A stretch of 64,000 bases of DNA from positions 10,367-74,366 of the forward strand of contig CAZION010000006.1 of NCBI GenBank assembly GCA_964540865.1, given 5' to 3'. Shown in pieces: positions 19,754 through 61,379 of the stretch. The position numbers and the translations under genes were made by a program. Numbering within the stretch: the first letter of the stretch is position 1; each line of letters begins with the position of its first letter. The DNA is from an uncultured Victivallis sp. GTDB taxonomy: Bacteria; Verrucomicrobiota; Lentisphaeria; Victivallales; GWF2-50-93. A model generated the notes under the pieces. The model was not told the origin of the DNA and did no database searches. It saw nothing but the letters and a program-made list of their open reading frames with translations.

Positions 19754-19789
19754 ACTTTCGCATTTTAGAACTTTCGAACTCTAGAACTT
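19754..19789. repeat. 8-nt-period micro-array overlapping the etfA stop codon
   Basis: actttcgc attttaga actttcga actctaga actt. Confidence 0.55.
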
Positions 19790-20782
19790 CTTTCCTTCCT
19801 TGATTTCCTTTATCAGTGCCGGGACAACTTCAAAAAGATCGCCGACAATTCCGAAGTCTGCAACTTTGAAAATCTGGGCTTCGGGATCGTTGTTTATGGC
19901 AATGATTGTTTCTGCGGTCTGCATGCCGGCCAGATGTTGGATTGAACCTGATACGCCGACACCGACATAGAGTTTGGGGCTGATTGTCTTGCCACTGAGC
20001 CCTACCTGGTGCGGATAACTCAGCCATCCCCTGTCAACAACGTCCCTCGTAGCGGCAAGCGTCCCGCCGAGTGCGTTCGCCAATTCCCTTAACAGTGCAA
20101 GGTTTTCAGCCTTCTTTATGCCGCGTCCGGCGACAACGACTATTTCTGCGTCATGGAGCGACTGTTCTTCCTCATTCGGGATGAATCCTGTTCTTTTAAT
20201 TTTGCTGCTGAGAAGTTTTTGTTCAGGGTTGATCCTTATGATTTCCCCTTTTCTTCCTTTCTGGATGACGTCTGCGGGCTTTGTGGAACGGGGTCTTACA
20301 GTTGACATCTGCGGACGGAAATCAGGAGTCCTGATTGTCGCCATTATGTTTCCCCCGATTGCCGGGCGTGTCTGTAGGAGGTTGTTTGTGCCGTCTTCAA
20401 TGTCAAGGCCGGTGCAGTCTGCGGTCAGTCCGGTATAGGCTGTCATTGCCACATAGGGGAGGAGTGTCCTTCCTGTTGATGTTGCTCCGCCGAGAATGAT
20501 TTCCGGCTTGAACTTGTCGAGCAGGTTGAGCATGCAGGCCGAATAAGGTTCGACGAGGAAATTAGTGAGTTCCGGCGCTTCTACAGCGACTACCTTGTCA
20601 ACTCCCATGTCAACAAGCTCCTGGAGGTCGGCTCCGTTGATATCACATCCGAAAACCATGGCGCAGAGTTTGCATCCGCGTTTTTTTGAGAGTGCGATTC
20701 CGCGTGTCACCAGTTCGTGCGATATGCGCAGTATCCGCCCGTTCTCCTGCTCCGCCAGTATCCATACGTCTGAACAATTCAT
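19781..20782 (-). CDS. etfA: Electron transfer flavoprotein alpha subunit
   Basis: GLTADCT, QTRPAIGGN, QVGLSGKTISPKLY, GVSGSIQHLAGM. Confidence 0.93.
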   Translation of the reverse strand: MNCSDVWILAEQENGRILRISHELVTRGIALSKKRGCKLCAMVFGCDINGADLQELVDMGVDKVVAVEAPELTNFLVEPYSACMLNLLDKFKPEIILGGATSTGRTLLPYVAMTAYTGLTADCTGLDIEDGTNNLLQTRPAIGGNIMATIRTPDFRPQMSTVRPRSTKPADVIQKGRKGEIIRINPEQKLLSSKIKRTGFIPNEEEQSLHDAEIVVVAGRGIKKAENLALLRELANALGGTLAATRDVVDRGWLSYPHQVGLSGKTISPKLYVGVGVSGSIQHLAGMQTAETIIAINNDPEAQIFKVADFGIVGDLFEVVPALIKEIKEGKKF

Positions 20783-20801
20783 TAATTCACCTTGATTTTT
20801 T

Positions 20802-20873
20802 ACCACTAAACACACGAACGACACGAAAATTAATGTTTATCTTTTTCTGTGTTTTTCGTGTATTCCGTGGTTA
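20802..20873. repeat. Inverted 9-nt-period element overlapping the etfB stop codon
   Basis: accactaaa cacacgaac gacacgaaa ... tttctgtgt ttttcgtgt attccgtgg tta. Confidence 0.7.
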
Positions 20874-21668
20874 TAAAACTTCTTTTTTCTTTAACAAAGC
20901 CCCGAGTTTTCCTACGGCTTCCCTTATCTTCTCCTCGTCGCGGGCAAACATCTTTTCACATTCCCTTGCAACTTTCGGCCTGAAAATCTTCACGACCTTG
21001 GTTGGAGAACCTGCCAGTCCGACTTTCTTCGGGTCGAGTGCAAGATCGTTTATTCCCCAGACGGGTATCTGCGATTTTCTCGCTTTCTGTTTTCCACGGA
21101 GCGTAGGGAGGCGCGGGTCGCTGACTTCCTTCACTACAGTCAAAAGGCACGGCATCTGTGCTTCAAGCTTTTCTGAACCTTCTTCGACCAGTCTTTGCGT
21201 GTCAATTACGCCGTTCGTGATCTTGCTCACCTTGTTGACATATGATGCGACCGGAAGTTTGAGGTAGGAGGCGATTTCCGGACCGACCTGTCCGGTATCC
21301 CCGTCGGTTGCTCGTTCGCCGCAAATTATGAGATCGTACTCGCCAATTTTCTTTATGGCTTCAGCGAGAACGTAGCTTGTCGCCCAAGTGTCTGAGCCGG
21401 CAAATGCCCTGTCGCTGAGGAGGACTGCGGAATCAACGCCCATTGCGATCGCCTCCTTGAGCGCTTCAATGGCCTTGGGCGGCCCCATTGAAATGGCAAT
21501 CGCTTCGCCGCCGTAGGTTTCCTTCAGCTGTACTGCTATTTCAATTGCATAAAGATCAAGGGGGTTGATGATTGATTCAACACCTTCCCTTATCACCGTG
21601 CCTGTCTTCTCATCCATCTTTACGGATTTTGTTTCAGGCACCTGTTTTATCGGAACAATTATTCGCAT
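20871..21668 (-). CDS. etfB: Electron transfer flavoprotein beta subunit
   Basis: IKQVP, INPLD, SMGPP, FAGSDTWAT, DGDTGQVGP, GSPT. Confidence 0.93.
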   Translation of the reverse strand: MRIIVPIKQVPETKSVKMDEKTGTVIREGVESIINPLDLYAIEIAVQLKETYGGEAIAISMGPPKAIEALKEAIAMGVDSAVLLSDRAFAGSDTWATSYVLAEAIKKIGEYDLIICGERATDGDTGQVGPEIASYLKLPVASYVNKVSKITNGVIDTQRLVEEGSEKLEAQMPCLLTVVKEVSDPRLPTLRGKQKARKSQIPVWGINDLALDPKKVGLAGSPTKVVKIFRPKVARECEKMFARDEEKIREAVGKLGALLKKKEVL

Positions 21669-21762
21669 GTCAAAACCTATATGTTTTGTTTTTATGATTT
21701 TCGTCATTAACATAATCAAGGCATGATGTTTTTAAACCCCATGATTGAAAATGTTCAATGCA

Positions 21763-22473
21763 TTAAAAATACATCTTTTCCAGCGACTTGTTTATTCCGG
21801 GCGCGCCGAAGAGCGGAAGATTTCTTGTCTTCATCACGTTTCCGAGATTTTTTACCGCCTTCTTGTCGAGTTCCTTCAAGCTTCCTGCGGAAAGGCCTTT
21901 CAGCATCGAGTTTGCCGAGCTTTCCAGAAGTTCAACTGTCAGAAGCGTCCAGTAAATATCACCTCGTGTCATTGTCACCAAACCGTGGTTTTCCATTATG
22001 AAACTGTTGTATTTCTGCAGGAAAGGCGAGAAGTTGGCGGCAAGTTGCTGGGTTAGCGGCTCAGCATAAGGCACGACCGGAACTGGGCCAACCTCTGTAG
22101 TTGTCTCAGGATAATACGGCCTCATCAGATGGTTTTTACCTTTCATGATCGCAAAAGCGCAGACACATGGCGGATGGCAGTGCAGGACGGAGACGATATC
22201 CACCCTTTCCTCGAAGAATTTCAGGTACATCGGCTTTTCACCGGTGGGTTTCCTCTTCCCTTCGACAATGTCACCATTGCGGTTTATGAAGACTACATCT
22301 CTGTCTGTTATGTCGCCCTTGTTCATCTGTGTGGGAGTTATAAGTATTGCATCGTCTTCAAGCTTCCATGCGAGGTTCCCGCCGAACGCGGTCACATACA
22401 TGTTCTTTGCAAGCCGTCCGCAGACTTTTACGAAGAGGGACACTTCTTTGCGATATTTTTTTGACAAACTCAT
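21763..22473 (-). CDS. Class II aldolase/adducin family protein
   Basis: GGNLAW, ITPT, KPTGE, HCHPP, MENHG. Confidence 0.85.
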   Translation of the reverse strand: MSLSKKYRKEVSLFVKVCGRLAKNMYVTAFGGNLAWKLEDDAILITPTQMNKGDITDRDVVFINRNGDIVEGKRKPTGEKPMYLKFFEERVDIVSVLHCHPPCVCAFAIMKGKNHLMRPYYPETTTEVGPVPVVPYAEPLTQQLAANFSPFLQKYNSFIMENHGLVTMTRGDIYWTLLTVELLESSANSMLKGLSAGSLKELDKKAVKNLGNVMKTRNLPLFGAPGINKSLEKMYF

Positions 22474-22525
22474 TTTATTTTCTCCTAATTTACTATATGT
22501 ATGATAATTCAAATTCTAATCAAGA

Positions 22526-22623
22526 CACGCTAAAGCCGTGAACTCCAACTTAGTTTCCTCCGAACTACTCTCTTACCCCTTGGCACTTACCTCTTACCAT
22601 TCGAAGTTGAATGTTCGATGTTA
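22526..22623. repeat. Composite: GGAG-type REP-like hairpin plus two heptamer tracts
   Basis: cacgctaaagccgtgaactcca; cttaccc cttggca cttacct cttacc; ttcgaag ttgaatg ttcgatg tta (ends in the gene stop). Confidence 0.6.
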
Positions 22624-23667
22624 TGGGATGATTACCACCTTCATCGCCCCGGATGAAGGGTTGCCCTGAACCTCTACAGCCCTGTTGAAATCGGCAAGGC
22701 CGAATTTATGGGTGACAAGTGCGTCCGCATTGATTTTTCCGGATTCAATAAGATCCCTGGCCTCGAGATAATCTTTCTGGACCGAGCTGTTCGCACCATG
22801 CACATGCAGTTCGAGATAATGGATGAGGTTCAGGTCTATCTGTTCGATCGGATCCGATTTCGGCATTCCTGCGAATATCGAAAGATGCCCTGAACGCGCA
22901 AGGATTTTGATTCCGACCGGAACAATTGATTTTACCGAAGCCGCGACCACAACCGCATCAACCCCGCGCCCCCCGGTATTCTGTTTCACCCAGTCAACCG
23001 GGTTTATTTTTGCGGTGTTCACAAGATTGTCGAAGGGCAGCTTCAGTCTCCTGTGGAGATCAAGCCTTTCCTGGGAAACATCCATTATGGTGATTTCCCT
23101 TGCACCTCTGGCTTTTGCCACCAGGGCGTTTAAAACTCCGATTATCCCGCCTCCGAAGACAACAACGTGTCCGCCATTTTCAAAGGGGATGCACCTCATT
23201 CCGTTGACACAGCAGCTCAACGGTTCAATGAGGGTTCCGGCTTCCGCGGACATCTTTCCGGATATCGGGATGAGACATCCCTGATCGACTCCAGCCTTCG
23301 GCATGACCATGTATTCAGCGAACCCGCCATTCCATTGGTATCCCATCGCCTTGAATCCGTTCTCGCATAGATTTTCCTGATGAACCCTGCACGAGGGGCA
23401 TTTCCCGCAGCCTATCACTGTCTGGACCGCATAACGTTCGCCTTTTCCAATTCCTTTCACGCCTTTGCCGGTTTCAACGACTGTTCCGGTTATCTCGTGT
23501 CCGACTATCGGAACGTCAACATGTTTTTCACCTTTCAGCACTCGCTGATCTGTTCCGCAGAGGGCGCACGCCTCAACCTTCAGCAACACTTCTCCTTCGG
23601 CTGGCTTGGGAGTCGCGACTTCTTCTACAACAATCAATCCGGGCTTTTTAATAACAGCGGCTTTCAT
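22621..23667 (-). CDS. Zn-dependent alcohol/polyol dehydrogenase
   Basis: CGTD, GHE, CGKCPSC...C, EPLSC, GGGIIG. Confidence 0.88.
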   Translation of the reverse strand: MKAAVIKKPGLIVVEEVATPKPAEGEVLLKVEACALCGTDQRVLKGEKHVDVPIVGHEITGTVVETGKGVKGIGKGERYAVQTVIGCGKCPSCRVHQENLCENGFKAMGYQWNGGFAEYMVMPKAGVDQGCLIPISGKMSAEAGTLIEPLSCCVNGMRCIPFENGGHVVVFGGGIIGVLNALVAKARGAREITIMDVSQERLDLHRRLKLPFDNLVNTAKINPVDWVKQNTGGRGVDAVVVAASVKSIVPVGIKILARSGHLSIFAGMPKSDPIEQIDLNLIHYLELHVHGANSSVQKDYLEARDLIESGKINADALVTHKFGLADFNRAVEVQGNPSSGAMKVVIIP

Positions 23668-23848
23668 CCTGTATCTCCTTCGTTATTGTTTAATGTTATT
23701 TTTGGAATAAAAATAACACTAAACTCTTTAGATATTCGCCTGTTCTATTGCGGCATTTGACCGCTTAATTTAATGTTAAAGAATTTCAAAGTTATGTACA
23801 TCATTCAATTTTCGGACTTCATCTTCTGCGAATTGTAAAATTCGCACA

Positions 23849-23958
23849 TGGAGTGCGGCAATTCATTGCCGCCTTTAATGACGGAATTTATTCCGTTCCA
23901 TCTAAATGCCGTGAAATAAATTTCACGAAACAAGGCGGTAATAAATTACCGCACTCCA
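23849..23958. repeat. REPIN-like element with GGAG-type terminal REPs and two internal hairpins
   Basis: tggagtgcggcaattcattgccgc ... gcggtaataaattaccgcactcca. Confidence 0.75.
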
Positions 23959-24032
23959 CGGAGCGTTGTCACGCTCGTAAATCAAAAATTCATTCCAACG
24001 TTTTCGAACTCAAGTATTCTGTCTTTTGCACC

Positions 24033-24060
24033 CCATTCGAAGTTCAATGTTCGAAGTTCA
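24033..24060. repeat. TTCGAAG/TTCAATG heptamer tract
   Basis: ccattcgaagttcaatgttcgaagtt matches 22597-22622 at 24 of 26 positions. Confidence 0.6.
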
Positions 24061-24098
24061 AATTATTAAAGTTGGGGCCTACAGCAGCCTAATTTCAA

Positions 24099-25136
24099 CT
24101 ACAACTCAATCATGGCCTTCACTACGCCATCTTTGTAATCGGCTACAAGTTCAAACGCCTCCTTTGTGTCTTTGAACTTGAAACGGTGTGTAGTCATTTT
24201 GTTGACATCGAACAGTTTTTTGTCTATCATGTCGAGGGCCGCCTGAACACAATGATTCTGGCGTCTTACATTCTGGATGCAGATTTCCTTCCTTCGTGAA
24301 AGATCGACATTCAGAGACCAGGATTTCATTGAGGGAGGAATTCCGATGAGCATGATCTTGCCGCCTGGTTTCACAAGCTCTACAGCCTGTTCGAGCGCCT
24401 CCTGCTGTCCGCAGCATTCAAAAACGGCATCAAATAGAAGAGGCTCCTTATCGGTGATTTCCTTCACGATGTCACACTTCGTCGGATTGCCGGTCCAGGT
24501 GGCGCCCATCTTTTCCGCAAGCTGGATACGGCTGTCAATCTTATCGGTCATATATACTTTTTCCGCGCCCTGCGCCATTGCCGGAAGAAGGACGCTGAGA
24601 CCTATCGGGCCTGCGCCGAGAATTGCGATTTTCGCAGCTTCCATCGGAATCGACCTTTTCACGGCGTAAACTCCGATCGCGAGAGGTTCGGAAATTGCGG
24701 CCTCCTCAAATGACATCGAATCCCTTATTTTAAAACAGCATTCCTCCGGCATGACGATATATTCTGAAAGACAGCCGTCGGCCTGTTTCGGACAGCCGAG
24801 GAAACGGAGTTTCCTGCACGTGTGTGAACGTCCGGCCCTGCACTGGTCGCATTGATGGCATGACATCGCCGGCTCGATTGCAATCCTGTCTCCCGGTTTC
24901 ACCTTTGTAACCGCAGATCCGACTTTGTCGACTGTTCCGGCACCCTCGTGTCCTACGGCGAACGGATATTCTACTACCTGGCTTCCGATTTTGCCTCCGA
25001 CATAATAGTGGACATCGGAGCCGCAGACCCCGACAATTTTCATCCTGATGAGAACATCGTTCGGATTCTTTATTTCCGGAGCGGGGACATCCTGCATCTC
25101 CATCCGGCGTATTCCTGTCAGCATCATCGCTTTCAT
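24099..25136 (-). CDS. Zn-dependent polyol dehydrogenase (sorbitol/L-iditol dehydrogenase-like)
   Basis: GGAG RBS, CGSDVHYY, GHEG, CHQCDQC...C, EPLAIG, GAGPIG. Confidence 0.88.
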   Translation of the reverse strand: MKAMMLTGIRRMEMQDVPAPEIKNPNDVLIRMKIVGVCGSDVHYYVGGKIGSQVVEYPFAVGHEGAGTVDKVGSAVTKVKPGDRIAIEPAMSCHQCDQCRAGRSHTCRKLRFLGCPKQADGCLSEYIVMPEECCFKIRDSMSFEEAAISEPLAIGVYAVKRSIPMEAAKIAILGAGPIGLSVLLPAMAQGAEKVYMTDKIDSRIQLAEKMGATWTGNPTKCDIVKEITDKEPLLFDAVFECCGQQEALEQAVELVKPGGKIMLIGIPPSMKSWSLNVDLSRRKEICIQNVRRQNHCVQAALDMIDKKLFDVNKMTTHRFKFKDTKEAFELVADYKDGVVKAMIEL

Positions 25137-25203
25137 TGTTTTCTCCGTATTTTTATATTTGCGCAACGTGGTGCGTTTTTCTGTACGTACGAATTTATAA
25201 TGA

Positions 25204-25238
25204 AATCAAAAATAATCAATAACAATCAAATATAATCA
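25204..25238. promoter_or_regulatory. Putative DeoR-family operator: four AATCA repeats at a 10-bp period
   Basis: AATCA at 25204, 25214, 25224 and 25234, between divergent catabolic genes and the DeoR gene. Confidence 0.7.
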
Positions 25239-25341
25239 TGATAAATTTTCAACTGAGGTTGAAAATTTAAAAAGATGAAGGACAATAATGTGGAGTAGCC
25301 GTGAGCTGTTATGATTGATATAATTATCAGGGAAAGTTGTT

Positions 25342-26112
25342 ATGCTTCAGAAAGAGAGACAGGATAAGATTTTGGAATGCCTTTCCGGCGGGAACTATCT
25401 TTCCGTTGAAGAGGCGGTGCGGGTTTTCAAGTCGAGTCCGGCCACTATCCGCAGGGATTTCCTGGAGCTTGCAGAATCCGGGCAGGTGCTGAAGGTCAGA
25501 GGCGGGATAAGTTCCAGGAAGGCACAGACGGTCCTACCGTTTTCCGACAGGGAGTCGTCCTGTTTCTCCGAAAAAGAGGCCATTGCGAAATCCGCAGTTT
25601 CCATGATCGGTGCAGGCGATGTGGTCTTCATAGACGGCGGTACGACCACCTTCCACATGGCTTCTGTTCTCCCTGACATGAACATAAGGATAATAACAAA
25701 CTCACTCAGGCTTGCTTCGGCGCTGGAAGAGAGGAGCTTGAACGCCAGATGGGAGATTTATCTGACCGGTGGATTCCTATACACGAGATCCGGCATTCTT
25801 CTGGGACCTAATACGCAGGGCAGTCTTGCCCAGTACCATGCCAACCTGGCATTCCTCTCGGTAAGCGGAATTGACGGTGACGGCGTCTACAACAACAGCG
25901 AGCTAGTGGTGGACGCGGAAAGAGTCATGATAAGCAACTCCGACAGGACCGTCATCATGGCCGATCATACCAAGATCGGCAAGCACGGGCTTGCCAAAGT
26001 CTGCGACATTGACAAGATCCACGGAATTATAACTGACAGAAACGTTAGCATTAATAAAAATCTCAATCTCATCAGGAAAAAAGGTGTTGAAATAACGCTG
26101 GTTGACGTGTGA
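25342..26112 (+). CDS. DeoR/GlpR family transcriptional regulator
   Basis: SPATIRRDF HTH, EKEAIA, IDGGTTT, ITNSL, ADHTK. Confidence 0.93.
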   Translation: MLQKERQDKILECLSGGNYLSVEEAVRVFKSSPATIRRDFLELAESGQVLKVRGGISSRKAQTVLPFSDRESSCFSEKEAIAKSAVSMIGAGDVVFIDGGTTTFHMASVLPDMNIRIITNSLRLASALEERSLNARWEIYLTGGFLYTRSGILLGPNTQGSLAQYHANLAFLSVSGIDGDGVYNNSELVVDAERVMISNSDRTVIMADHTKIGKHGLAKVCDIDKIHGIITDRNVSINKNLNLIRKKGVEITLVDV

Positions 26113-27528: not shown

Positions 27529-27634
27529 GTTGGGTTAGGCTGTAACTCCAACTTGTCCTTGTTAATTTTTCCGGGACGGAAAAATTTCCTTATTCTGAAA
27601 GCCTTGAAGTCTTGCAATATGATCGTATATTTGA

Positions 27635-27658: not shown

Positions 27659-27676
27659 ATCTTAATGGAGGGTGCT

Positions 27677-27946
27677 ATGAAAACATATGGGGCTTTCGAG
27701 GCCAAGACTCATTTCTCCCAGTTGCTTGCGCTGGTGGAAAGCACCGGTGAGGAAATTCTCATACGGAAAAGGGGAAAGGGTGTGGCTGTGCTTATTCCTT
27801 ATGCGAAGAGAGATGATTCAGAGAGAGAAAGGAAGGCTCAGGAGATATTGAACAACTTCAAGATAATCCGGGAATCGCAGGCGGAATACAGATCTGCCGG
27901 GAAAATGACTGCTAAGGAAATGGTGAATTTCGGGAGGAAGAGATGA
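27677..27946 (+). CDS. Phd/YefM family antitoxin
   Basis: GAFEAKTHFSQLL...EILIRKRGKGVAVLIP. Confidence 0.88.
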   Translation: MKTYGAFEAKTHFSQLLALVESTGEEILIRKRGKGVAVLIPYAKRDDSERERKAQEILNNFKIIRESQAEYRSAGKMTAKEMVNFGRKR

Positions 27947-28386
27947 ACAGGAAAGTTGTAATTGATGCATCAGTTTCGGCTTCCTGGTTCCTGCATGACG
28001 AATTTAATCAGAAAGCCGACGAACTTCTGAAAGAGGTGATACATGGGAGAATTGACCTTTTCCAGCCGCTTCTTTGGAAATATGAGATTATAAATGTGCT
28101 TAGGACAGCCATCCTCCAAAAGAGAATTGCCAAGGACAAGGCGATGCTTGCTGTTTCAACTATAAACAGTATCAAGGTGGAATATATTGTTCCTGGCAAT
28201 GAAGACATGTTAAACTTGATGAGGATTGCAGATGAGAATTCCCTGACCGCATATGATGCATCCTATCTCCATACTGCCGAGATGAAATCAGGAGAGCTCT
28301 TTACGTCCGACAAGGATCTGCTTAAACTGAAGAATAAATATTCATTTGTCAGGAGGATTGATGAATTTACGGTAAAATATAATTGA
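27943..28386 (+). CDS. VapC-like PIN domain toxin
   Basis: VIDASVSASW, YEIINVL, LTAYDASYL, TSD; ATGA overlap with the antitoxin. Confidence 0.88.
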   Translation: MNRKVVIDASVSASWFLHDEFNQKADELLKEVIHGRIDLFQPLLWKYEIINVLRTAILQKRIAKDKAMLAVSTINSIKVEYIVPGNEDMLNLMRIADENSLTAYDASYLHTAEMKSGELFTSDKDLLKLKNKYSFVRRIDEFTVKYN

Positions 28387-28462: not shown

Positions 28463-30073
28463 ATGAAGAAATCTCTTTTCTGCATCGTTGTTTTTCTGTT
28501 CTGTGTTTTTTTCTGTCTGGCAGAGACAGGAAAAAACTTCAAGTCCACGCTTGACGGGAAATGGTATCCTGCCGACCGTGCCGGGCTGACAAAACAGCTC
28601 TCCGAGCTGTACAAGGCTGCAGAGGCGGAAGAGTTGAAAGACGTCATAGCACTCATCCAGCCGCATGCGGGATATCAGTATTCCGGAAAAACTGCCTTCT
28701 GCGGACTCAAATCACTCGGGAAGAGCTATAAGAGAATTGTCATTTTGGGACCGTCACACACTATGCACATGACCAACATTCTCAGTGTGCCGAAATATGA
28801 CAGTTTCGAGACGCCTTTAGGAAGAGTTCCGATGGATGTGGAATTCATGGAGAAGCTCCTCAAGCATCCGAGCTTCAAGGATGCTCCGGAAGCCTTGACC
28901 AGGGAGCACAGCGTCCAGATCCAGGTGCCACTCCTTCAATACGCGTGGCAAATCCGAAACTCGAAATCCGAAATCCGAAACACTAGGGATAAACAGGCTG
29001 CCGCCGACGGACGACCGACGCCCCTCCTACGCCAAGGCTTCGAAGGGCAGGCTGACGCCTTCCCAAAAATAGTTTTCATCATCGCCGGGCAGTGTTCGAT
29101 GGACACGGTGAAGGATGCAGGTAAAATTTTGAGGGGACTTCTGGATGACGATACGCTTCTTCTGATAAGCTCGGATTTCACGCACTATGGAGATAATTAC
29201 GATTATTTCCCTTTCAAGGATGATGTGCCGGCAAAATTGAAGGAGCTTGACTTCGGCGCCTATGAAATGATCCGGAAAAAGGACGCAGAGGGATTCGGTA
29301 AATATATTGAGAAGACCGGAGACACCGTTTGCGGGTATGTTCCGATTGAAACGCTCCTTTCAATGCTGCCGGAAAATGCCTGCGCCGTGAAAACAGCTTA
29401 TACTACGTCAGGTGAGATCCTGAAGGATTACAGCAGTTCGGTGAGTTACTTTTCCATTGCATTTACCGGAAAATGGGGTGAACGCAAGGAACCGGAGGAG
29501 AAAAAGAAAACCGGCACGCTGTCTGCCGAAGATAAGAACACGCTTCTTTCACTTGCAAGAAAGACAATCGTATTTTATCTGGATAAACGGAAAATCCCGG
29601 AACCGTCTGATTTGGGCGTTGTATTGCCTGATGGGGTTAAAGAAGAGCGGGCTTGTTTTGTGACACTTAAGGAGAATGGTGAACTGCGCGGATGCATCGG
29701 CGAAATCTTCCCAGGTCAGCCATTGTATAAATCGGTCATTGTCCATGCCGTTGCGGCGGCCGTAAGGGATCCCCGTTTTGAGGCTGTCTCAAAAGATGAG
29801 GTCGGGAAGCTGTCTATTGAGATTTCCGCGCTGACTCCGCCACGGGGAGTTTCTTCGTACAAGGATATAAAAATCGGAACAGATGGAATGGTGCTTAAAA
29901 AAAGCATGCGTTCGGCTGTTTTCCTCCCTCAGGTAGCAACAGAGCAGGGATGGAGTCTCGAACAGACCCTTAGCGCCCTTTCCAGAAAGGCCGGACTTCC
30001 TGAGAATGCTTGGAAGGAAGGCGCAAGTTTCCTGACTTTCCAGGCGGAAGTGTTCGGTGAAGCTGATAAATGA
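28463..30073 (+). CDS. AmmeMemoRadiSam protein B (MEMO1) fused to protein A (AMMECR1), with signal peptide and in-frame repeat insertion
   Basis: WYP, PHAGYQYSG, GPSH, EHS, SSDFTHYG, TVCG; then CFVTL, LRGCIG, DPRF, FLPQV, KAG. Confidence 0.92.
   Translation: MKKSLFCIVVFLFCVFFCLAETGKNFKSTLDGKWYPADRAGLTKQLSELYKAAEAEELKDVIALIQPHAGYQYSGKTAFCGLKSLGKSYKRIVILGPSHTMHMTNILSVPKYDSFETPLGRVPMDVEFMEKLLKHPSFKDAPEALTREHSVQIQVPLLQYAWQIRNSKSEIRNTRDKQAAADGRPTPLLRQGFEGQADAFPKIVFIIAGQCSMDTVKDAGKILRGLLDDDTLLLISSDFTHYGDNYDYFPFKDDVPAKLKELDFGAYEMIRKKDAEGFGKYIEKTGDTVCGYVPIETLLSMLPENACAVKTAYTTSGEILKDYSSSVSYFSIAFTGKWGERKEPEEKKKTGTLSAEDKNTLLSLARKTIVFYLDKRKIPEPSDLGVVLPDGVKEERACFVTLKENGELRGCIGEIFPGQPLYKSVIVHAVAAAVRDPRFEAVSKDEVGKLSIEISALTPPRGVSSYKDIKIGTDGMVLKKSMRSAVFLPQVATEQGWSLEQTLSALSRKAGLPENAWKEGASFLTFQAEVFGEADK
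28949..29059 (+). repeat. Composite repeat insertion read in frame within the AmrB domain
   Basis: aaatccg aaactcg aaatccg aaatccg (28950-28977) and cctcctacgccaaggcttcgaagggcaggc (29023-29052). Confidence 0.8.
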
Positions 30074-44405: not shown

Positions 44406-44630
44406 GTGAAAAAACTCATATACATACTGCTGGGAATGCTGCTGTTCCCGATAATCATTTTTATAGTACTTATAGTCATCCCACTTTTCCTGTTGTTCCT
44501 GATAGTGTTGAAAATGTTCACGTTTAAGCTAAGAAGAAAATCACCTCGGCCGCCACCCGCCTCTTCCAGAAAAATACATCAGACGGATGATGTCGTCGAC
44601 ATTGAATGTGAAGTAATGGATGATAAGTAG
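44406..44630 (+). CDS. Small membrane protein
   Basis: Hydrophobic N-half; C-terminal DDVVDIECEV. Confidence 0.6.
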   Translation: MKKLIYILLGMLLFPIIIFIVLIVIPLFLLFLIVLKMFTFKLRRKSPRPPPASSRKIHQTDDVVDIECEVMDDK

Positions 44631-44990
44631 CACAGGCCCTGGTCGCCAAAGGCGCTGCCATAGGCAGGTAAACATTCCTGCCTGTGTCTTGTGTTGGGAG
44701 TAGCACGGGCATCCTGCCTGTGTGGGTGTGTTCGGGTAGGAGATGGCAGACTTTAATTAGGCGGCTACGGACCGCAGCTCAGAACAATGGAATATCTAAT
44801 TATGGCGAGGGAAGTGAGGACAGAGAATAACGAAGAGGGAATTAAGTTGGAGTTCATCACGTGACCACGTTGGCACGTGGAACGTGACTCACGTGGCGGC
44901 TTTCCTGTCCGCCGTAGCATCTTAGCGAAGGCGGAAGCGTGTCTTGATTATCTTGGATATTGGACATTCCGTGCTGGACATTGGATATTC
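44627..44990. repeat. Hotspot of small repeats of four different kinds
   Basis: GTAG REPs (44627, 44700-44722), CACGT tract (44858-44895), palindrome (44904-44935), TTGGAYA heptamers (44953-44987). Confidence 0.7.
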
Positions 44991-49217: not shown

Positions 49218-49637
49218 ATGAATCGCTTTATGTTGAGTATTGCCTTTATGTCTTTCTTTATCTCTTCTAATGCAATGTCGCAATCATATATTGAAAAGCC
49301 TGCGACCGGCGATCGTCTCTATAAATGGGACGGTCAATTCCTGATGAAACCAACCACCGGGGAACGGCTTTTCAAATGGGATGGCGCTTATATTATGAAA
49401 CCCAGCACCTCGGAACGACTGTATAAGTGGGATGGAGAGTTCCTGATGAAACCAAACACTGGGGAACGGCTCTTCAAATGGGATGGGACTTACATTATGA
49501 AACCCAGCACCAGCGAACGGCTGTATAAATGGGATGGAGAGTTCCTGATGAAAGCGAATACCGGGGAGCGTTTGCTCAAAACCGATGGTGAGTTCCCGGC
49601 AGCCATTGTAATCGCCATGGCCACAGGATTGATCTGA
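49218..49637 (+). CDS. Secreted protein with six 17-aa repeats
   Basis: AGGAGG RBS, signal peptide, (Y/F)(I/L)MKPxTxERL(Y/F)KWDGx repeated six times at 49287-49592. Confidence 0.8.
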   Translation: MNRFMLSIAFMSFFISSNAMSQSYIEKPATGDRLYKWDGQFLMKPTTGERLFKWDGAYIMKPSTSERLYKWDGEFLMKPNTGERLFKWDGTYIMKPSTSERLYKWDGEFLMKANTGERLLKTDGEFPAAIVIAMATGLI

Positions 49638-54009: not shown

Positions 54010-54028
54010 TTTTTTATCCTTTCTTAAA

Positions 54029-54093
54029 GTCGTCAGTTGTTGGTCGCCAGTCATCAGTTTTTCCGAATGCCGTCGACCGAAGACAGTCGACTA
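54029..54093. repeat. Inverted GTC.../...GAC heptamer element overlapping the cysH stop codon
   Basis: gtcgtca gttgttg gtcgcca gtcatca ... cgtcgac cgaagac agtcgac ta. Confidence 0.7.
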
Positions 54094-54828: not shown

Positions 54829-54846
54829 AGTATTTCCTAAATTAAA

Positions 54847-54874
54847 CTTTGTGCCTCTGTGCCTTTGCGCCTTT
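54847..54874. repeat. 8-nt-period micro-array
   Basis: ctttgtgc ctctgtgc ctttgcgc cttt. Confidence 0.55.
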
Positions 54875-54882
54875 ACAACTAA

Positions 54883-55113: not shown

Positions 55114-55265
55114 AAATTCAATCCATATGTTATTGTTGATGATTGCTTATATATGACCCTTTAAGTGATAATACTATATCAAGTATATCGACAAAGTAAA
55201 CAATCAATTTGCAGAAAATAGTAAAATAATTGCAAGTTATTGATGGATAGCGTTAAAGGTGTATT

Positions 55266-56642
55266 TTAAATCTTGAATTGTTCCGGATTAGAAAGGAAAT
55301 GCATGTGAATATAGCTGGCGATTACGTTTTTTATTCTAATCCCGGTTGCTGCCCATTTTGAATCTTTCCGCGTCCCTCTGATTTCGAATGCCGGCACGAT
55401 ATTCTTTGATGTGAATTCCGCCTCCGACCAATGGAACTCGTGTCCGCGAAAAACAGTCCCTTTTTCACCAAGGAAACTGCTCTGTTTCAGTTTTATCTCC
55501 CTATAACCAAGGCTGTGCAGCTTTGAGCCCATCTTGATCCTGCATGGAATGACTCCGCACATATTGTATTTCCTTCGCCCGCAGGAAATACTTTCGGATA
55601 GATACATGAAGCCGCCGCATTCGGCAAAGATGTGTCCGCCAGCCTTTGCGAAAGATGCAACAGACTGCAACATTGGTTTGTTTGCTGAAAGTTTCGCCGC
55701 AAATATTTCAGGAAATCCTCCGCCGATGTAAAGGAATTCTATTCCTGCTGGAAGTCCTTTGTCCTTCAACGGAGAGAAAAAGACAATTTCGAATCCGGCA
55801 TTTCTCAACGCATCAAAATTATCTTCATAATAGAAGTTGAACGCATCGTCAAGGGCGATTCCGATTTTCGGTCCTCGGTCGACAGCAGACAGTCGGCAGC
55901 TTGGGAATTTAATTCTTGTCTTTTCTTTATTGATACCTGACGACCAACAACCGACGACTGACGACTTTAATATCTTTTCGATATCAACATGTTTCTCGCA
56001 GATATCGGCAAGGGTGTTGAACCACTTCTCTTTCTTTCTGTTCTCGAATACCGGGACCAGGCCGAGATGCCGTTCTTGAAGTTTCAGCTTTTCATCACGT
56101 GGAATCCAACCGAGCAGGGGCGGCAGTCTGTCTCTCTTAAGCGCGATCTTCAGTATTTCAGCATGTCTCTCTGATGAAACATTGTTGGCGATCACTCCGA
56201 ATATTCTAATCTTTGGACAGTAACTGCAATATCCTTTGACAAGCGCTGAGATGCTGCCGGCCATACCCTTTGCATTGACAACGAGCAATACCGGGACATT
56301 CAAGGTTCTTGCCACATCAGCCGTGCTTCCTTCAAGTTTGCCCGGTTTTGCGCCGTCGAACAAACCCATTACACCCTCGATTACCGCACAGTCTTTATCC
56401 TTGATACCAGCTTCAAAAGAGTACGAAAGCGCACCCGGGACCATCCAGCTGTCGAGATTTCTTGAGGGAGTCCCGCAGGCGGCCTTATGAAAAGCTGTGT
56501 CAATGTAATCAGGTCCGCACTTGAACGGGGCAACCTTGACTCCGCGTCTTTTTAGAGCCCGCAGCAAACCAAGGGTAACCGTGGTTTTCCCCGCCCCTGA
56601 ATTGGTCCCGGCTATGCAGAATGCATAAAATTTATGTTCCAT
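55266..56642 (-). CDS. cbiA: Cobyrinate a,c-diamide synthase
   Basis: SGAGKTT, FKCGPDYID, EGVMGLFDG, ERHLGL, AFNFYY, GGGFPE, AECGG, GHEFH. Confidence 0.93.
   Translation of the reverse strand: MEHKFYAFCIAGTNSGAGKTTVTLGLLRALKRRGVKVAPFKCGPDYIDTAFHKAACGTPSRNLDSWMVPGALSYSFEAGIKDKDCAVIEGVMGLFDGAKPGKLEGSTADVARTLNVPVLLVVNAKGMAGSISALVKGYCSYCPKIRIFGVIANNVSSERHAEILKIALKRDRLPPLLGWIPRDEKLKLQERHLGLVPVFENRKKEKWFNTLADICEKHVDIEKILKSSVVGCWSSGINKEKTRIKFPSCRLSAVDRGPKIGIALDDAFNFYYEDNFDALRNAGFEIVFFSPLKDKGLPAGIEFLYIGGGFPEIFAAKLSANKPMLQSVASFAKAGGHIFAECGGFMYLSESISCGRRKYNMCGVIPCRIKMGSKLHSLGYREIKLKQSSFLGEKGTVFRGHEFHWSEAEFTSKNIVPAFEIRGTRKDSKWAATGIRIKNVIASYIHMHFLSNPEQFKI
55871..55965. repeat. Inverted heptamer element inside the cbiA interdomain linker
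   Basis: gtcctcg gtcgaca gcagaca gtcggca ... tgacgac caacaac cgacgac tgacgac. Confidence 0.75.
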
Positions 56643-57735
56643 GAATTTTATATCCCCTAAGAGTATAAAGCCTCCCGCCGCGCAAGACGGTTTGTGAATT
56701 TCCAATGATCACAAGTGTCGACATGTCTACGAATTCTTCCGGGAAATGATCAAGTGTCCCGCATACGGTGAGTTCATTGTCTCTGCCAGCATTTTTCACA
56801 ATTCCGAAATTTGTATCACCGCCTCTGGATTTCTTAATAGATTTGATTGCGAATGCAAGCAAATCTTTCCTGCTGTGGCTTCTTGGATTGTAGATGGCGC
56901 AGACCATGTCGGCTTCGGCAAGCAGCCTTATTCTTTTTATAATTGTCTTCTTCGGGGTCAGCAGATCGGACAGGCTGATTATTGCGAAATCATTCATGAG
57001 CGGGGCGCCAAGAGCGGAGGCCGCAGAGAGAGCCGCAGTTATTCCGGGAAGCGTTTCTATCTTTACTCCACGGTACTTTTCCTGTTCCGAAAGTTCGAGA
57101 AGAAGCCCGGACATGCCATATATCCCGGCATCTCCGGAACAGACTACCGATACGTTTTTGCCTGAAGCGGCTTCGTCAAGAGCCAGACTGCATCGTTCTA
57201 TTTCATGGGTCATGCCAGTGGCGATTCTCTTCTTCTTCCCGATGAGTGACGGGATTTGTTCAAGGTATTTCCCATAGCCGGCCACAGTGTCGGAAGCCAG
57301 GATTGCGGATTTCGCATCTTCCGTTATCTGGTCAATTGCGCCAGAACCTATTCCGATTGCAGTGAGAGTTCCCCTTGCTTTGACAGGTTCCGCTATGGCG
57401 ATGGTTATTTTTCCCCCGTGAATCGACTTCGGAAAAATTATCCTACCTCCTGCGGCGATAGCTGCAGCTTCAGATACGCTGTGCGAATCGATGTGCTTTT
57501 TGACTTTTTCCGAAGGGGAGGGGACTTCTATCTTGGACAGTTCCTCCGGAGTGAAGAAGACAATCTTTATTCCTTTGGACTCGGCATATTCAAGCAGCCC
57601 TTTTTCATTGCACTTGAGCGTGCAGGTTGCGATAAGGCTGATGCTTTTTCCGCCCAGTACATTCTCGATCGCCTTTGAGATTTCATCGCAGGTGGTCCCC
57701 CGCCTGCATCCTAAACCTATTATGTGTTTCTTCAT
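56632..57735 (-). CDS. cbiH: CbiG C-terminal domain fused to precorrin-3B C17-methyltransferase
   Basis: IIGLGCRRG...SVSEAAA; then GIGSG, SGDAGIYGM, PGITA, DFAIISLSD, YNPRS, TLRGY. Confidence 0.9.
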   Translation of the reverse strand: MKKHIIGLGCRRGTTCDEISKAIENVLGGKSISLIATCTLKCNEKGLLEYAESKGIKIVFFTPEELSKIEVPSPSEKVKKHIDSHSVSEAAAIAAGGRIIFPKSIHGGKITIAIAEPVKARGTLTAIGIGSGAIDQITEDAKSAILASDTVAGYGKYLEQIPSLIGKKKRIATGMTHEIERCSLALDEAASGKNVSVVCSGDAGIYGMSGLLLELSEQEKYRGVKIETLPGITAALSAASALGAPLMNDFAIISLSDLLTPKKTIIKRIRLLAEADMVCAIYNPRSHSRKDLLAFAIKSIKKSRGGDTNFGIVKNAGRDNELTVCGTLDHFPEEFVDMSTLVIIGNSQTVLRGGRLYTLRGYKIHGT

Positions 57736-57747
57736 TTTTCTCCGTTT

Positions 57748-57853
57748 GTAGTAGCGCAATTTATTGCGCGTTCTTTTCTGTTTGTAGTAGGAGAATTTAT
57801 TCGCCGTTCTTCAATTGATGTGATCAAGAACGCGCAATAAATTGTGCTACTAC
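57748..57853. repeat. REP module (two forward REPs, one reverse) left of RAYT
   Basis: gtagtagcgcaatttattgcgc, gtagtaggagaatttattcgcc, gcgcaataaattgtgctactac. Confidence 0.88.
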
Positions 57854-57860
57854 AAGCTGA

Positions 57861-58451
57861 TTAATCATCCCACCCTTTTCCATAACCAAGGACTGGATAA
57901 CTTTCCCATAACTGTACCAGTTTATCTCTTCCATGTTCTGATATATGTCCGTGTATGCTTGAGGTTTCCCAATCCAAAGCATTTTTTACCTGATGGTGTT
58001 TTACCGGATTTGAATTGATATAATTTACAGAAGCCCAGAAATGATTTGAGTTCCTTATTTTTCTATCAGAATACCTAAACCATACCACTCTTTTCATTGT
58101 TTTGTCCTCTTTGTTCCATTCAAAAGCTGTTTTCCTGTGTAATTTCGAGATAGTTTTGGAAAAATCTTTTAAATTCACTTTTGCAAGAAAATGATAATGG
58201 TTTGGAAGAATACACCAGGCAAAAATATTCCCAATGGTGGATATTTCGTTCAACATCATAAATTCAAAACTTTTTCTTCTTTCGGCTGTATTCATGATGT
58301 TTTTGTGCTCGAAAATGGAGGCGGTTAAAATATAGGTTTTAATGATATCATCAAAAAAATGGGGAGGTTCGTGAAGAGGCAATTGTGAAAACTTGCGGTA
58401 GTTAAGCACATCTTGTTTTTGAATTTCATTTAATTTTCTATATTTATACAT
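57861..58451 (-). mobile_element. REP-associated tyrosine transposase (RAYT, Y1 HUH)
   Basis: AWCILPNHYHFL (HUH), DRKIRN, NYINSNPVKH (catalytic Tyr), WETSS; flanked by GTAG REPs. Confidence 0.9.
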
Positions 58452-58461
58452 TTTCGCCTTG

Positions 58462-58567
58462 CCGGTAGCACAATTCTCTGCGCGTTCTTTTCTGTTGGTA
58501 GTAGGCGAATTTATTCGCCGTTCTCCACCTGGGTCTAGGAATGACGCGCAATAAATTGCGCTACTAC
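58462..58567. repeat. REP module right of RAYT, direct repeat of 57748-57853
   Basis: Same length and layout at an offset of 714 bp. Confidence 0.88.
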
Positions 58568-60069
58568 GAACGGAGCCTTAACACGGGCATAAATGTTGAT
58601 TCCATTTTCGTGTTAAATACAACCGCACCGCAGAATTTTCCTGTTTTTAACTTGCCGGAGCTAGATATGTGAATAATATTCGTTTTAGAATCGTAATGCT
58701 TGCGGTATACCCCCTCCGGCACCATCAATCCAATTCTCTTCCCTTCAAGAAGCATAGAGTTCAGCGTCTTTATCATTTCCGGGTTTTCGACTTTCCAGCC
58801 TTCAATTGCGGCCATTTCATCAAACGCCATCAGGTTCTGGACATCTGTTGCTGTAGTGATTACCGCCTGTCCACCTAAGGCTTCGGCTGCGAACTTCGCA
58901 AGCCTGTTCGCCCCGCCTATGTGCCCGCTGAGCAGGCTTACGGCATAATTACCTTTCTGGTCACAGACTATCACTGCTGGGTCGGACGTTTTGCTGTTGA
59001 TGAATTTCGAAATCTTCCTCACAACTATTCCTGTCGCCATTATGAATATGTGACCGGCGAATCCTTTCCAGTTCCGGCTTAGGGTTTCGTCAAACCCGCC
59101 TTCCTTAAAAAATTCCGTGACGGAATTTTTAACCGATTTACCTTTAAACCTTTCAGGCATGAAAAGTGTTCCACCTTTTATGCTGGGTAAAAGCTTGTGG
59201 GCTGTTTCAATGCCTTCGGCTGTTATTGCATAAATTGCGATCTTCCCCTGAAAATCTCCGGTTCTCCTGTTCTCCGATTCTCCGATTCGTTCTTCAACGG
59301 CTTTCCGGTACCCGTGTGTGAATGCAGCATCATAGAGGAGAGACTTCCCGCATTTTTTCCTGTCAAGTGCGTCTCCGACAATTATCATCGCCTGGCGTTC
59401 TATGCCAGCTTTCGTCATTTTTCCTGAAATATTGGAAAGATCGCCCCTGACTATTTTTTCTTCCTTCCACGAGGCCCTGTAAACTACTTGGGCCGGTGTT
59501 TCGGGAGAATAGCCACCGCGTATCAGTTCGGCAGTAAGATTTTTTACGCCTCCTGCGGATAGGAATATGCACATTGTCGCACCGTGTTTTGCGAGGTTCG
59601 CAATTTCCTGTCCGTGTGGAACGGGGGTTCGCCCTGCCTGCCGTGTAAGGATTACAGTTTGCGATACGCCGGGCGCGGTGAGTTCCGTTTTAAGGGCTGC
59701 TGCGGAAGCGAACACTGAACTTACGCCGGGGATGACTTCATATGGGATTTTGAACTTGTCCAGCTCAGTCATCTGTTCAGCAATGGCGCCATAAATTGCA
59801 GGGTCTCCGGTATGAAGTCTTACTACTCTTTTTTCAGAGAGATACGCCTCTTTCATCAATTTTACAATTTCCTGCAAGGAAATTATCGCACTGTCGACTG
59901 TTCTGCATTTGCTTCCTGCGTATTTCAAAATCTCAGGGTTGACAAGTGAGCCGGCGTAAACGATCAGATCTGCCTCCTGTATTGCTTTCAGGCATCGCAA
60001 TGTTATCAGGTCTGGAGCCCCGGGGCCGGCACCTGCAAATATTATTTTGTGATTTGATGATTTTTTCAT
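58564..60069 (-). CDS. cbiF: Precorrin-4 C11-methyltransferase fused to CbiG N-terminal and mid domains
   Basis: GAGPGAPDLIT, YAGSLV, RLHTGDP, LYDAAFTHGYR; then MATGIVVR, DPAVIV, LLSGHIGGAN, VITTATD. Confidence 0.92.
   Translation of the reverse strand: MKKSSNHKIIFAGAGPGAPDLITLRCLKAIQEADLIVYAGSLVNPEILKYAGSKCRTVDSAIISLQEIVKLMKEAYLSEKRVVRLHTGDPAIYGAIAEQMTELDKFKIPYEVIPGVSSVFASAAALKTELTAPGVSQTVILTRQAGRTPVPHGQEIANLAKHGATMCIFLSAGGVKNLTAELIRGGYSPETPAQVVYRASWKEEKIVRGDLSNISGKMTKAGIERQAMIIVGDALDRKKCGKSLLYDAAFTHGYRKAVEERIGESENRRTGDFQGKIAIYAITAEGIETAHKLLPSIKGGTLFMPERFKGKSVKNSVTEFFKEGGFDETLSRNWKGFAGHIFIMATGIVVRKISKFINSKTSDPAVIVCDQKGNYAVSLLSGHIGGANRLAKFAAEALGGQAVITTATDVQNLMAFDEMAAIEGWKVENPEMIKTLNSMLLEGKRIGLMVPEGVYRKHYDSKTNIIHISSSGKLKTGKFCGAVVFNTKMESTFMPVLRLRS
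59255..59288. repeat. 8-nt-period micro-array in the CbiF-CbiG linker
   Basis: tctccggt tctcctgt tctccgat tctccgat tc. Confidence 0.65.
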
Positions 60070-60102
60070 TGTCGGCTTTTTCTTTGTTTAACAATTTAAA
60101 AA

Positions 60103-60125
60103 CACAGGCAAGATGCCTGTGTTAC
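60103..60125 (-). repeat. REP-like hairpin overlapping the cbiET stop codon
   Basis: Minus strand gtaacacaggcatcttgcctgtg; same family as 44700-44722. Confidence 0.7.
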
Positions 60126-61345
60126 ATTTTTTTCTCATATACGAAAATATCAACTGAATTCTCTGATTTCATGAGCCTGGACGAGCCAAGTTTTGATGAG
60201 CGGCTTACGGATATGCTTACGGCCTCCGTGAAATTGTTTTTCAGACATTTTGTAAGCTCGGCTTTTGTTTCAAGGAGAACTGCGGTGACAACCAGGCGTC
60301 CTCCGGGAAGAAGCTTGCCGAATGCTTTTTCAGCGATTCTCCTGATGTCTTTTCCGCCACCGCCTACGAAAATGCACCTTGGCTGAGTGGTGAGTTTAGT
60401 CATTACCTTTAAAGCATCGCCTTCAATTGCTTCGACGTTTGAAACCCCGAACACCTCAATATTTTTTTGAAGCTGACTGAATCTCCCAGCGTCCGATTCG
60501 ACAGCTTTTACTTTAATATCACTGCAGAGTGACGCCGCTTCAATTCCGACAGACCCGCTGCCGGCTCCGATATCCCACATCAGCCCGGGGCCTATTTTGA
60601 GTTTTGAAAGGACCACGGCCCTGACTTCGGAATGCGTTATCATGCGGTTTTCACAGATATAAGAACTGTCAGGCAGTCCGAGAATTATTCCTTCATCGGT
60701 GATTTCTTCAGAAGGGAGAAGGGCAAGGATGGAAAGCCCGCCGCATTTTATTTTTGAAATCCGGAAAAGACTGCCGGACTGGATGTTCTCATTTTTCATT
60801 CCCAAATTTTCAGCTAGTACTGCTGATCTTTTCCCGTAAGCGGGAAAAGATTCCACAATGTTGGCGGCGAGATTGGCGGCTGTGATTTTATCGTCACAGT
60901 AGATGACGGACATGGACGATGAAAGCGCAGCCCTGAAATTGATTATCCTGCCACCGTGGATGCTCAGTAATTTTGCATTGTCCCATGGTATTTTAAGTTT
61001 TGAGAAAAGCGATTGCATCGCGGTGACATTGGGAATTATTTCAAACTCGCCATCTGGGAAATACCTTGCGGCAAACGCGCCGATTCCGTGGAAAAGAGGA
61101 TCTCCTGATGCGAGGATCGCAACTTTCCTGCTCTTTGAAAGTGATTTTATTTCAGAAATTATTTCGGATATTCCCGATTTTATCACGATTTTCCTGCCTT
61201 TGAATTCAGGAAAGAAATTCAGCAGTCTTTTCCCGCCTGCAATGACATCAGACTGAAGAACCTTTTCCCTGGCCAGGGGTGAAATACATTCCGGGGACAC
61301 CCCGCATCCGACAACAGTCACGTTTATTTTTTTGCCAATCTTCAT
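60122..61345 (-). CDS. cbiET: Bifunctional cobalt-precorrin C5/C15 methyltransferase (CbiE-CbiT)
   Basis: ASGDPLFHGIG, SIHG, ENLG, MITHSEVR, WDIGAGSGSVGIE. Confidence 0.9.
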   Translation of the reverse strand: MKIGKKINVTVVGCGVSPECISPLAREKVLQSDVIAGGKRLLNFFPEFKGRKIVIKSGISEIISEIKSLSKSRKVAILASGDPLFHGIGAFAARYFPDGEFEIIPNVTAMQSLFSKLKIPWDNAKLLSIHGGRIINFRAALSSSMSVIYCDDKITAANLAANIVESFPAYGKRSAVLAENLGMKNENIQSGSLFRISKIKCGGLSILALLPSEEITDEGIILGLPDSSYICENRMITHSEVRAVVLSKLKIGPGLMWDIGAGSGSVGIEAASLCSDIKVKAVESDAGRFSQLQKNIEVFGVSNVEAIEGDALKVMTKLTTQPRCIFVGGGGKDIRRIAEKAFGKLLPGGRLVVTAVLLETKAELTKCLKNNFTEAVSISVSRSSKLGSSRLMKSENSVDIFVYEKKM

Positions 61346-61350
61346 TTTTT

Positions 61351-61379
61351 TTTCGTGTCTTTAGCGTGTTTCGTGGTTA
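61351..61379. repeat. 9-nt-period arm overlapping the cbiD stop codon
   Basis: tttcgtgtc tttagcgtg tttcgtggt ta; same family as 20802-20873. Confidence 0.65.

Follow-up and report, generated by a model that had tools for sequence, protein, structure and literature searches.

Periodic tracts at gene ends

The window analysed here is a stretch of 64,000 nucleotides (nt; 64 kb) from an uncultured Victivallis sp. (G000:C6:10367-74366), in which degenerate tandem tracts with periods of 7, 8 or 9 nt lie at the ends of genes. The source genome, G000, comprises 7.1 Mb in 342 contigs and was compared with nine congeners (G001-G009). Public runs containing window DNA have a freshwater metagenome as their recorded origin. 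The gene names of an initial annotation, made from the sequence alone, were consistent with NCBIfam matches, and an Rfam scan of the window gave a tRNA as its sole match.

Five stop codons, those of etfA, etfB, an ADH gene (22621), cysH and cbiD, are overlapped by a tract or start one, at the positions that the initial annotation had given. The tracts were resolved into arms by profile scans of families of unit words, which distinguish an outward-start type (left) from its mirror image (right). The arms found in the window are the following:

16647..16676, plus strand: right-type arm, 28950 family, located 108 nt beyond a stop in a roomy gap; the profile scan missed it, and its family was assigned by eye
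19751..19790, minus strand: lone left arm, 8-nt period, etfA end; the array contains the etfA stop TAG (19781-19783)
20799..20874, minus strand: gene-less 9-nt hairpin, three units per arm, etfB end; begins at the etfB stop TAA (20871-20873); fold z -6.2
22602..22623, minus strand: lone left arm, 7-nt period, ADH end; begins at the ADH stop TAA (22621-22623)
24038..24065, minus strand: left arm of the ADH 7-mer family, about 34 nt beyond the stop of a second ADH gene, within a separate outer repeat frame
28950..28980, plus strand: 7-mer right-type arm, in frame in an AmmeMemoRadiSam B/A protein
44948..44989, plus strand: right arm, belonging to the most abundant 7-mer family; the gap around it is crowded with further repeats
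54027..54093, minus strand: gene-less 7-mer hairpin, cysH end; begins at the cysH stop TAG (54091-54093); fold z -2.8
54843..54882, minus strand: lone 8-mer left arm directly behind the stop of a DUF2061 gene; absent from the initial annotation
55868..55967, minus strand: degenerate 7-mer hairpin, in frame in the inter-domain linker of CobB; fold z -1.8
59256..59295, minus strand: 8-mer left arm, in frame in the linker of a CbiF-CbiG fusion; absent from the initial annotation
61351..61380, minus strand: lone 9-mer left arm, cbiD end; begins at the cbiD stop TAA (61377-61379), with the cbiE start after its A-run

What had been described as arrays thus proved to be real tracts, but several of them are single, unpaired left arms. 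Words do recur far apart, as claimed: the etfB and cbiD tracts form one 9-mer family, and the cysH and cobB tracts one 7-mer family. Not every recurrence lies at a gene end, however, since the copies at 28950 and 55871 are in frame inside proteins and that at 16647 is not at a stop. Likewise, the copy at 24033 lies past a stop, in another repeat frame. Contigs of X24 (an RNA run) and of X1, which may be the source sample, bridge the etfA and ADH tracts with zero differences, and these tracts are therefore unlikely to be assembly artefacts.

Census and polarity of arms in the genome

Periodic arrays are abundant throughout G000. Of arrays scoring at least 12, G000 has 325 with period 7 and 240 with period 8, while block shuffling of the genome (triplets permuted inside 60-nt blocks) left 7 and 8; at scores of at least 15, the counts were 181 and 132 against 1 and 0. 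The excess was weaker for period 9 (45 against 17 at scores of at least 12) because 9-mer arms have only three degenerate units. Few period-7 arrays lay within genes (24/323). Clustering of the units yielded well over a dozen words, and profile scans called 2051 arms and 298 paired elements, with 367 of the arms in coding DNA, some of them false. Arms detected by profile thus number some two thousand genome-wide, and 646 of 4746 junctions bear one. Inverted orientation is fixed within families (88 against 5 in the largest, 42 against 3 and 38 against 0 in others). This fixed pairing, together with words common to whole cassettes, upholds the earlier argument that recurrence and inverted arms speak against local slippage.

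The decisive test of anchoring was the polarity of the arms. The first arm within 15 nt behind a stop was of the left type at 195 junctions and of the right type at 8, and the last arm within 40 nt before a start was of the right type at 124 and of the left type at 29. The enrichment at stops that the initial annotation had set as its test is thus present. Simple distance tests were modest: stop-associated arrays numbered 117 of 523 against 86 ± 8 and 64 of 245 against 35 ± 6 under random intergenic placement. Lone left arms (144) outnumber lone right arms (73). Occupancy of gaps of 60-150 nt was 92/866 in the co-directional class, 21/122 in the convergent class and 2/99 in the divergent class. 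When gap classes were compared without length matching, no preference appeared (co-directional 13%, convergent 16%, divergent 15%). Stop codons in three frames, considered as a design rule, failed to hold generally across families.

Cargo genes and the link between words and protein clades

The initial annotation had linked similar tracts to the flanks of four-helix-bundle and GxxExxY genes in other genomes, and G000 bears this out. It contains 18 TIGR02436 and 7 TIGR04256 matches, most of which sit between inverted arms of these word families. All are outside the window, a search of which found no TIGR02436 or TIGR04256 gene, as had been stated. The flanks of these genes display a constant anatomy: a stop codon, a left arm, a small co-directional gene, a mirror-image right arm, and the start of the next gene. 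Congeners were searched for both families (TIGR02436 in seven of nine, with G004 and G008 omitted; TIGR04256 in all nine). Genes were called with our own hexamer-based caller, which small AT-rich genes escape. In total, 138 cargo genes were gathered (121 from 122 loci and 17 of G000), and 115 full-length genes of 95-175 codons were retained. Of the 105 with two periodic flanks, 72 had inverted matching words, against 5 after shuffling. The median duplex energy of a cassette's own two arms was -46 kcal/mol, compared with -28 kcal/mol when partners were swapped. Same-strand open reading frames (ORFs) for proteins flank the cassettes (107 and 103 of 115) as well as the window tracts.

A Pfam scan identified the cargo as PF05635 (four-helix bundle) and PF13366 (GxxExxY), the latter assigned by Pfam to the PD-(D/E)XK class, and PF05635 was present in 3/3 parent cassettes scanned. 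For each window word family, a gene-bearing parent with PF05635 or PF13366 was found in G000 or a congener. The word of the etfA arm is that of the four-helix clade of G000:C1:15520, L128, L130, L136, L178, L182 and L183, while the ADH arm (22602..22623) shares its word with the four-helix cassettes L125, L127 and L137, and the cysH hairpin with those of G000:C42, L121 and L146. The word of the etfB hairpin is that of the GxxExxY cassettes G000:C274 and L200, and the parent of the 28950 7-mer family is L157. Words and protein clades are linked across junctions. Among four-helix genes, the nearest protein at another junction carried the same word in 16 of 67 cases (1.2 after shuffling), and among GxxExxY genes in 13 of 40 (2.8 after shuffling), although some junctions counted as different may be split by short contigs.

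The cargo genes are under strong purifying selection, with median ratios of nonsynonymous to synonymous substitution (dN/dS) of 0.054-0.081 at dS of about 1. The GxxExxY motif is retained in 44 of 45 genes; a crude pattern for the catalytic motif, which was too strict, matched 16 of the 45 proteins. A ring protein could bind spaced repeats, as TRAP does, and the four-helix cargo protein presumably resembles Avd. The only clear relative with a solved structure is XCC0516 (S23p protein, 2GSC), which matches PF05635 with an E-value of 2.6e-22. XCC0516 forms a pentameric ring (PMC4990558). At G000:C36:4406, a four-helix gene has a C-terminal extension, and the right arm lies inside the ORF, between domains.

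Junction states in congeners and distant relatives

Comparison of orthologous junctions revealed tract-free, gene-less and gene-bearing states, the three that the initial annotation had proposed to look for. At etfB-etfA, G001, G004, G005 and G006 have an ATGA overlap with no insert. A 9-mer hairpin occupies this junction in G000, G002, G008 and G009 and, with a variant word, in G003, while G007 has a 7-mer hairpin. At etfA-glcD, an 8-mer arm is present in G000, G002 (with many more units) and G009, and the other seven genomes have only a doublet of repetitive extragenic palindromes (REPs). The remainder of this gap in G000 is the right half of an older GTAG-REP doublet. At ADH-fucA, G000 has the 7-mer arm, G003 an 8-mer hairpin and G008 a REP doublet; in G001, G005 and G006, the gap measures 1-16 nt. 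In contigs of X5, both ADH tracts are missing, and 21 and 28 different letters stand in their place. Between the two ADH genes (23680-24106), a gene of about 1.3 kb found in G005 and G008 is missing in G000, which has several repeats instead. The cbiD-cbiE arm is present in G000, G001, G007 and partly G009, and G003 and G008 have none. At 61290-61360, the cbiE start of G000 appears to be derived from an insert remnant; this ATG also occurs in the gap of G007, where it lies upstream of the conserved start.

In addition, 52 of 80 metagenome loci were inspected for etfB-etfA and etfA-glcD, the 28 most distant being omitted. A full four-helix cassette with 7-mer arms was found at 2 of 34 non-congener etfA-glcD junctions (L260 and L265), and a gene-less hairpin at 4 of 36 etfB-etfA junctions (L242, L243, L262 and L270, of which L242 and L243 are near-identical). 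At the etfB-etfA junction, L267 and L269 have a small Cys-rich gene without arms.

We also mapped cassette junctions of congeners onto G000, based on ORFs and with states classed by eye (j21 and j31 uncertain). Among 29 such junctions, G000 had a cassette at 13, a gene-less element of the same family at 5, a gene-less element of another family at 4, REPs at 2, another gene at 2 and nothing at 3. Unrelated cassettes shared one junction in 6 of 24 multi-member junction groups, one of which had three kinds. At G000:C23:41192, an unrelated small gene lies where G001 and G008 have a GxxExxY cassette. G000:C245 carries a second cbiD-cysH-cysD copy, about 80% identical to the window proteins, whose printed junction matches G002; this copy may be a paralogue or bin contamination.

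Nesting, copying and in-frame copies

Arms of different families are often found together. Two or more families occur at 131 junctions, against 34.7 expected (Poisson), and a first insertion creates neutral space as well. Adjacent arms of different families at co-directional junctions followed the orders left-right 65, left-left 46, right-right 11 and right-left 8. Side-by-side insertion should make right-left common, and the counts therefore favour insertion inside older elements. A sister loop elsewhere was found for 85 of 160 gene-less loops, including 38 of 44 in the largest family, while the 9-mer family of the window had none (0/3), nor did family 7c (0/10). Since sister loops are strong in some families and absent in others, it is likely that both gene loss in place and copying of empty hairpins occur.

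At least 53 of 1647 arms lie inside a separate paired outer frame, an undercount given that a second frame pattern did not pair. A frame like a MITE (miniature inverted-repeat transposable element) was observed in 55 paired copies, mostly of 100-200 nt, with heptamer hairpins or REP doublets as passengers; examples are G000 C10:26708 and C13:64360, and the etfB-etfA loop of L002.

Some arms are read as part of proteins. The inserts in CobB, in AmmeMemoRadiSam B and in the CbiF-CbiG linker vary in length and family among congeners, with the frame always kept, and the CobB linker of congeners contains other arm combinations. The 28950 arm is part of a 108-nt insert missing in two orthologues from other genera. 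Across G000, there are 40 strong in-frame arms in 32 genes, some of them false. At G000:C153:8248-11100 and C6:78346-80154, three different right-type arms are stacked in frame in one loop. Members of a paralogous family (G000:C10, C20, C33, C107, C236 and C307) share an in-frame 8-mer arm, located at one position in front of an 'ILVGEVW' motif.

A separate GTAG-REP system

The initial annotation had assigned REP-like hairpins at 44627, 58564 and 60122 to the same dispersal. They do overlap stop codons, namely those of ORF 44406-44630, of cbiF-G and of cbiE, but they belong to a different, known GTAG-REP system with RAYT-like (REP-associated tyrosine transposase) genes, distinct from the periodic arms:

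44627..44730, plus strand: REPs with a GTAG tag, which provides the stop of ORF 44406-44630
57740..58570, minus strand: RAYT-like gene (57861-58451) between GTAG-REP doublets; the GTAG tag supplies the cbiG stop at 58564
60101..60124, minus strand: single REP palindrome over the cbiE stop, terminator-like by scan

GTAG-tagged palindromes gave 81 and 75 matches in G000 with at most three mismatches, and GTAG termini that supply TAG stops have been published (PMC3733652). The gene at 57861-58451 has REPs on both sides; it scored 69.6 bits against NF047646, below the 80-bit cut-off, and had no match in a Pfam scan. This RAYT-like gene of the cobalamin operon is present in G009, and G001 has the REP doublet only. 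G000 contains 12 RAYT-like matches.

Origin of the tracts and alternative explanations

Based on these findings, we postulate that the periodic tracts are probably gene-less remains and copies of four-helix and GxxExxY cassettes that would insert behind stop codons. We infer a mobilising step between gene junctions. A cassette would land behind a stop codon, often within an older element, such that left arms stack before right arms. Deletion of the gene would leave a hairpin and later often the left arm alone, which may hold the stop. Some gene-less hairpins would in turn have been copied, as are REPINs (hairpins formed by REP doublets), and read-through or fusion would turn arms into protein linkers. 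We are fairly confident in these steps taken jointly. With a good deal more reserve, we suggest that each protein clade might have its own word as recognition target: the GxxExxY nuclease would cut there, and the four-helix pentamer would bind the repeats and leave the chemistry to another enzyme. More tentative still is the idea that the two small families form an undescribed self-nesting class that reads its own words, seeks DNA or RNA behind translated stops and inserts in its earlier elements. If true, a single genome would hold more than 12 orthogonal word-protein pairs, and the class would account both for the excess of heptamers in bacteria and for peptide loops and fusion linkers newly gained by housekeeping enzymes. 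That the tracts are footprints of dispersal at gene ends, as first proposed, is supported by the cargo linkage and the junction states; gene ends may be either targeted or places of tolerance.

Several observations weigh against this interpretation. When arms were shuffled within the same gaps, stop-adjacent ones numbered 61 against 50.7 ± 5.3. In gaps with at least 100 nt free, 20 of 85 abutted the stop against 11.6 expected, and because this enrichment is only about 1.7-fold, much of the stop enrichment may reflect tolerance rather than targeting. No target-site duplication was detected at 55 stop-anchored junctions (7.31 against 7.20 ± 0.12), though old ones could have decayed; the same test led us to reject a duplicated ribosome-binding stretch at etfB-etfA as such a duplication. 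Under a strict threshold, the majority of nearest neighbours had no common word, and the linkage of words to clades is equally expected from simple co-inheritance. Movement is also slow, given that 5 of 6 readable congeners retain the cysH hairpin, which is thus old (in G006 it is replaced), and that many cassettes remain at one junction to dS of about 1. In the nine congeners, the five window junctions were without cargo, and a protein tree of etfB, etfA and glcD (2 of 11 inner branches starred) gave no polarity of gain or loss at etfB-etfA. At the ADH junction, the shortness of the gap in G001, G005 and G006 looks like the result of secondary deletion. Tandem insertion followed by internal deletion could also yield a left arm of one element followed by the right arm of another. 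Finally, PF05635 has no known enzyme activity (PMC4990558).

The gene-less hairpins could instead be the primary mobile units, similar to MITEs or REPINs and moved by an unrelated transposase, with the genes as passengers captured in the loop. The near-copies of just over half of the loops, above all in the largest family, would fit this explanation, as would the arms inside outer frames, the RAYT-like matches and the presence of elements in divergent gaps too (84/548). Random capture, however, would not be expected to make words track cargo clades across junctions, and the families lacking sister loops, the arms without GTAG tags or flanking duplication, and the five gene-less junctions of G000 that hold a full cassette of the same family in a congener all argue against it; we consider it improbable. 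Less probable again is that the elements are modules for mRNA processing maintained by the host, whose stems are RNase III sites that cut operons and which spread only by inheritance and homologous exchange. The long residence at one junction with dN/dS below 0.1 and the position of the stems between coding regions are in agreement with this, and Coxiella's intervening sequence (IVS), with heptamers in its 5' arm, is excised by RNase III (PMC4990558). Yet four congeners lack any insert at etfB-etfA, families replace one another at a junction, the 144 lone left arms cannot form a stem, and the strong in-frame arms lie in genes; the first arrival at new junctions would also be left unexplained.

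Two further explanations are already contradicted. Local polymerase slippage of 7-8-nt units, surviving where tolerated and without a shared origin, has been proposed for bacterial heptamers (PMC4679880); copy number does vary in this way at the etfA arm, and the depletion of short divergent gaps is what tolerance predicts. It does not predict the inverted pairing, the words shared with cassettes or the left/right polarity, making it very unlikely. For the periodic tracts, the chance that they are ordinary intrinsic terminators is negligible. The terminator scan matched two REP palindromes, at 44659 and 60101, along with a sub-hairpin at 54072 (plus strand, opposite cysH), whereas the transcribed strand had no match at the etfA, etfB, ADH, cysH or cbiD tracts. 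These lie inside operons and vary among congeners, unlike the conserved terminators that the initial annotation had raised as a counter-explanation.

Relation to known systems

The closest parallel is the 23S rRNA IVS of Coxiella burnetii (S23p), in which a PF05635 gene is enclosed by a long terminal stem whose 5' arm contains tandem heptamers (PMC4990558). The parent cassettes are alike: inverted repeats form a long stem in paired elements, not in lone arms, and the PF05635 gene occupies the loop, although the window copies are gene-less. In contrast to that IVS, the cassettes lie between protein genes rather than within an rRNA gene, comprise at least a dozen word families, include GxxExxY nuclease cargo with the same design, and are far outnumbered by gene-less copies. 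Purifying selection acts on their cargo, unlike the Coxiella ORF, which reportedly decays (PMC4990558). The organisation is reminiscent of REPIN-RAYT systems, REPtrons and TIRtrons, in which cognate inverted repeats flank a conserved, slow-moving gene, gene-less hairpins of roughly 100 bp are numerous, termini provide stops, and in-frame copies occur (10.1101/2021.07.10.451892, PMC3733652). Here, however, the arms consist of tandem 6-10-mers lacking the GTAG tag, PF05635 or PF13366 takes the place of an HUH tyrosine transposase as cargo, and related cargo occurs at several junctions. The multi-family system is real: it is a variation on the ORF-bearing intervening sequence, housed in mRNA operons and with an organisation like that of REPIN-RAYT systems, and is a member of neither class.

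The heptamers GGGAATC of Xanthomonas and Nostoc (PMC4692102) and TAACTGA of Beggiatoaceae (PMC4679880) also form period-7 arrays near stops and starts with strand polarity, often in convergent pairs and sometimes over stops or in frame. Those studies deal with a single word in each genome, and the terms searched gave no mention of a four-helix or GxxExxY gene there. A supplement row of PMC4692102 places a GGGAATC array 6 nt from bccP, over the XCC0516 start, which the main text does not discuss. MITEs and the Rickettsia palindromic elements are likewise short inverted-repeat elements, some in frame in functional proteins (PMC3733652). In comparison, the elements described here showed no detectable target-site duplication, end in degenerate arrays instead of fixed terminal repeats, and have no DDE transposase identified as cognate, in an analysis that listed the long paired outer frames but did not annotate the genes in them. 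In the literature covered, with subscription journals and most supplements outside its scope, we found no statement that four-helix or GxxExxY families are bracketed by inverted periodic arms.

These findings provide two very large families of unknown function (PF05635 and GxxExxY) with candidate substrates, namely their own arm words, whose binding or cutting is directly testable. They also offer a possible origin for heptamer repeats described as unexplained (PMC4692102). Operons and proteins are visibly shaped by these elements, from the junctions that bear an arm to enzymes with arm-derived loops, and the genus provides a matched panel of tract-free, gene-less, gene-bearing and replaced junctions.

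Other features of the window

The AmmeMemoRadiSam cluster contains a Phd-PIN toxin-antitoxin pair at 27665-28386. A short ORF at 49305-49567 holds a 51/102-nt tandem repeat.

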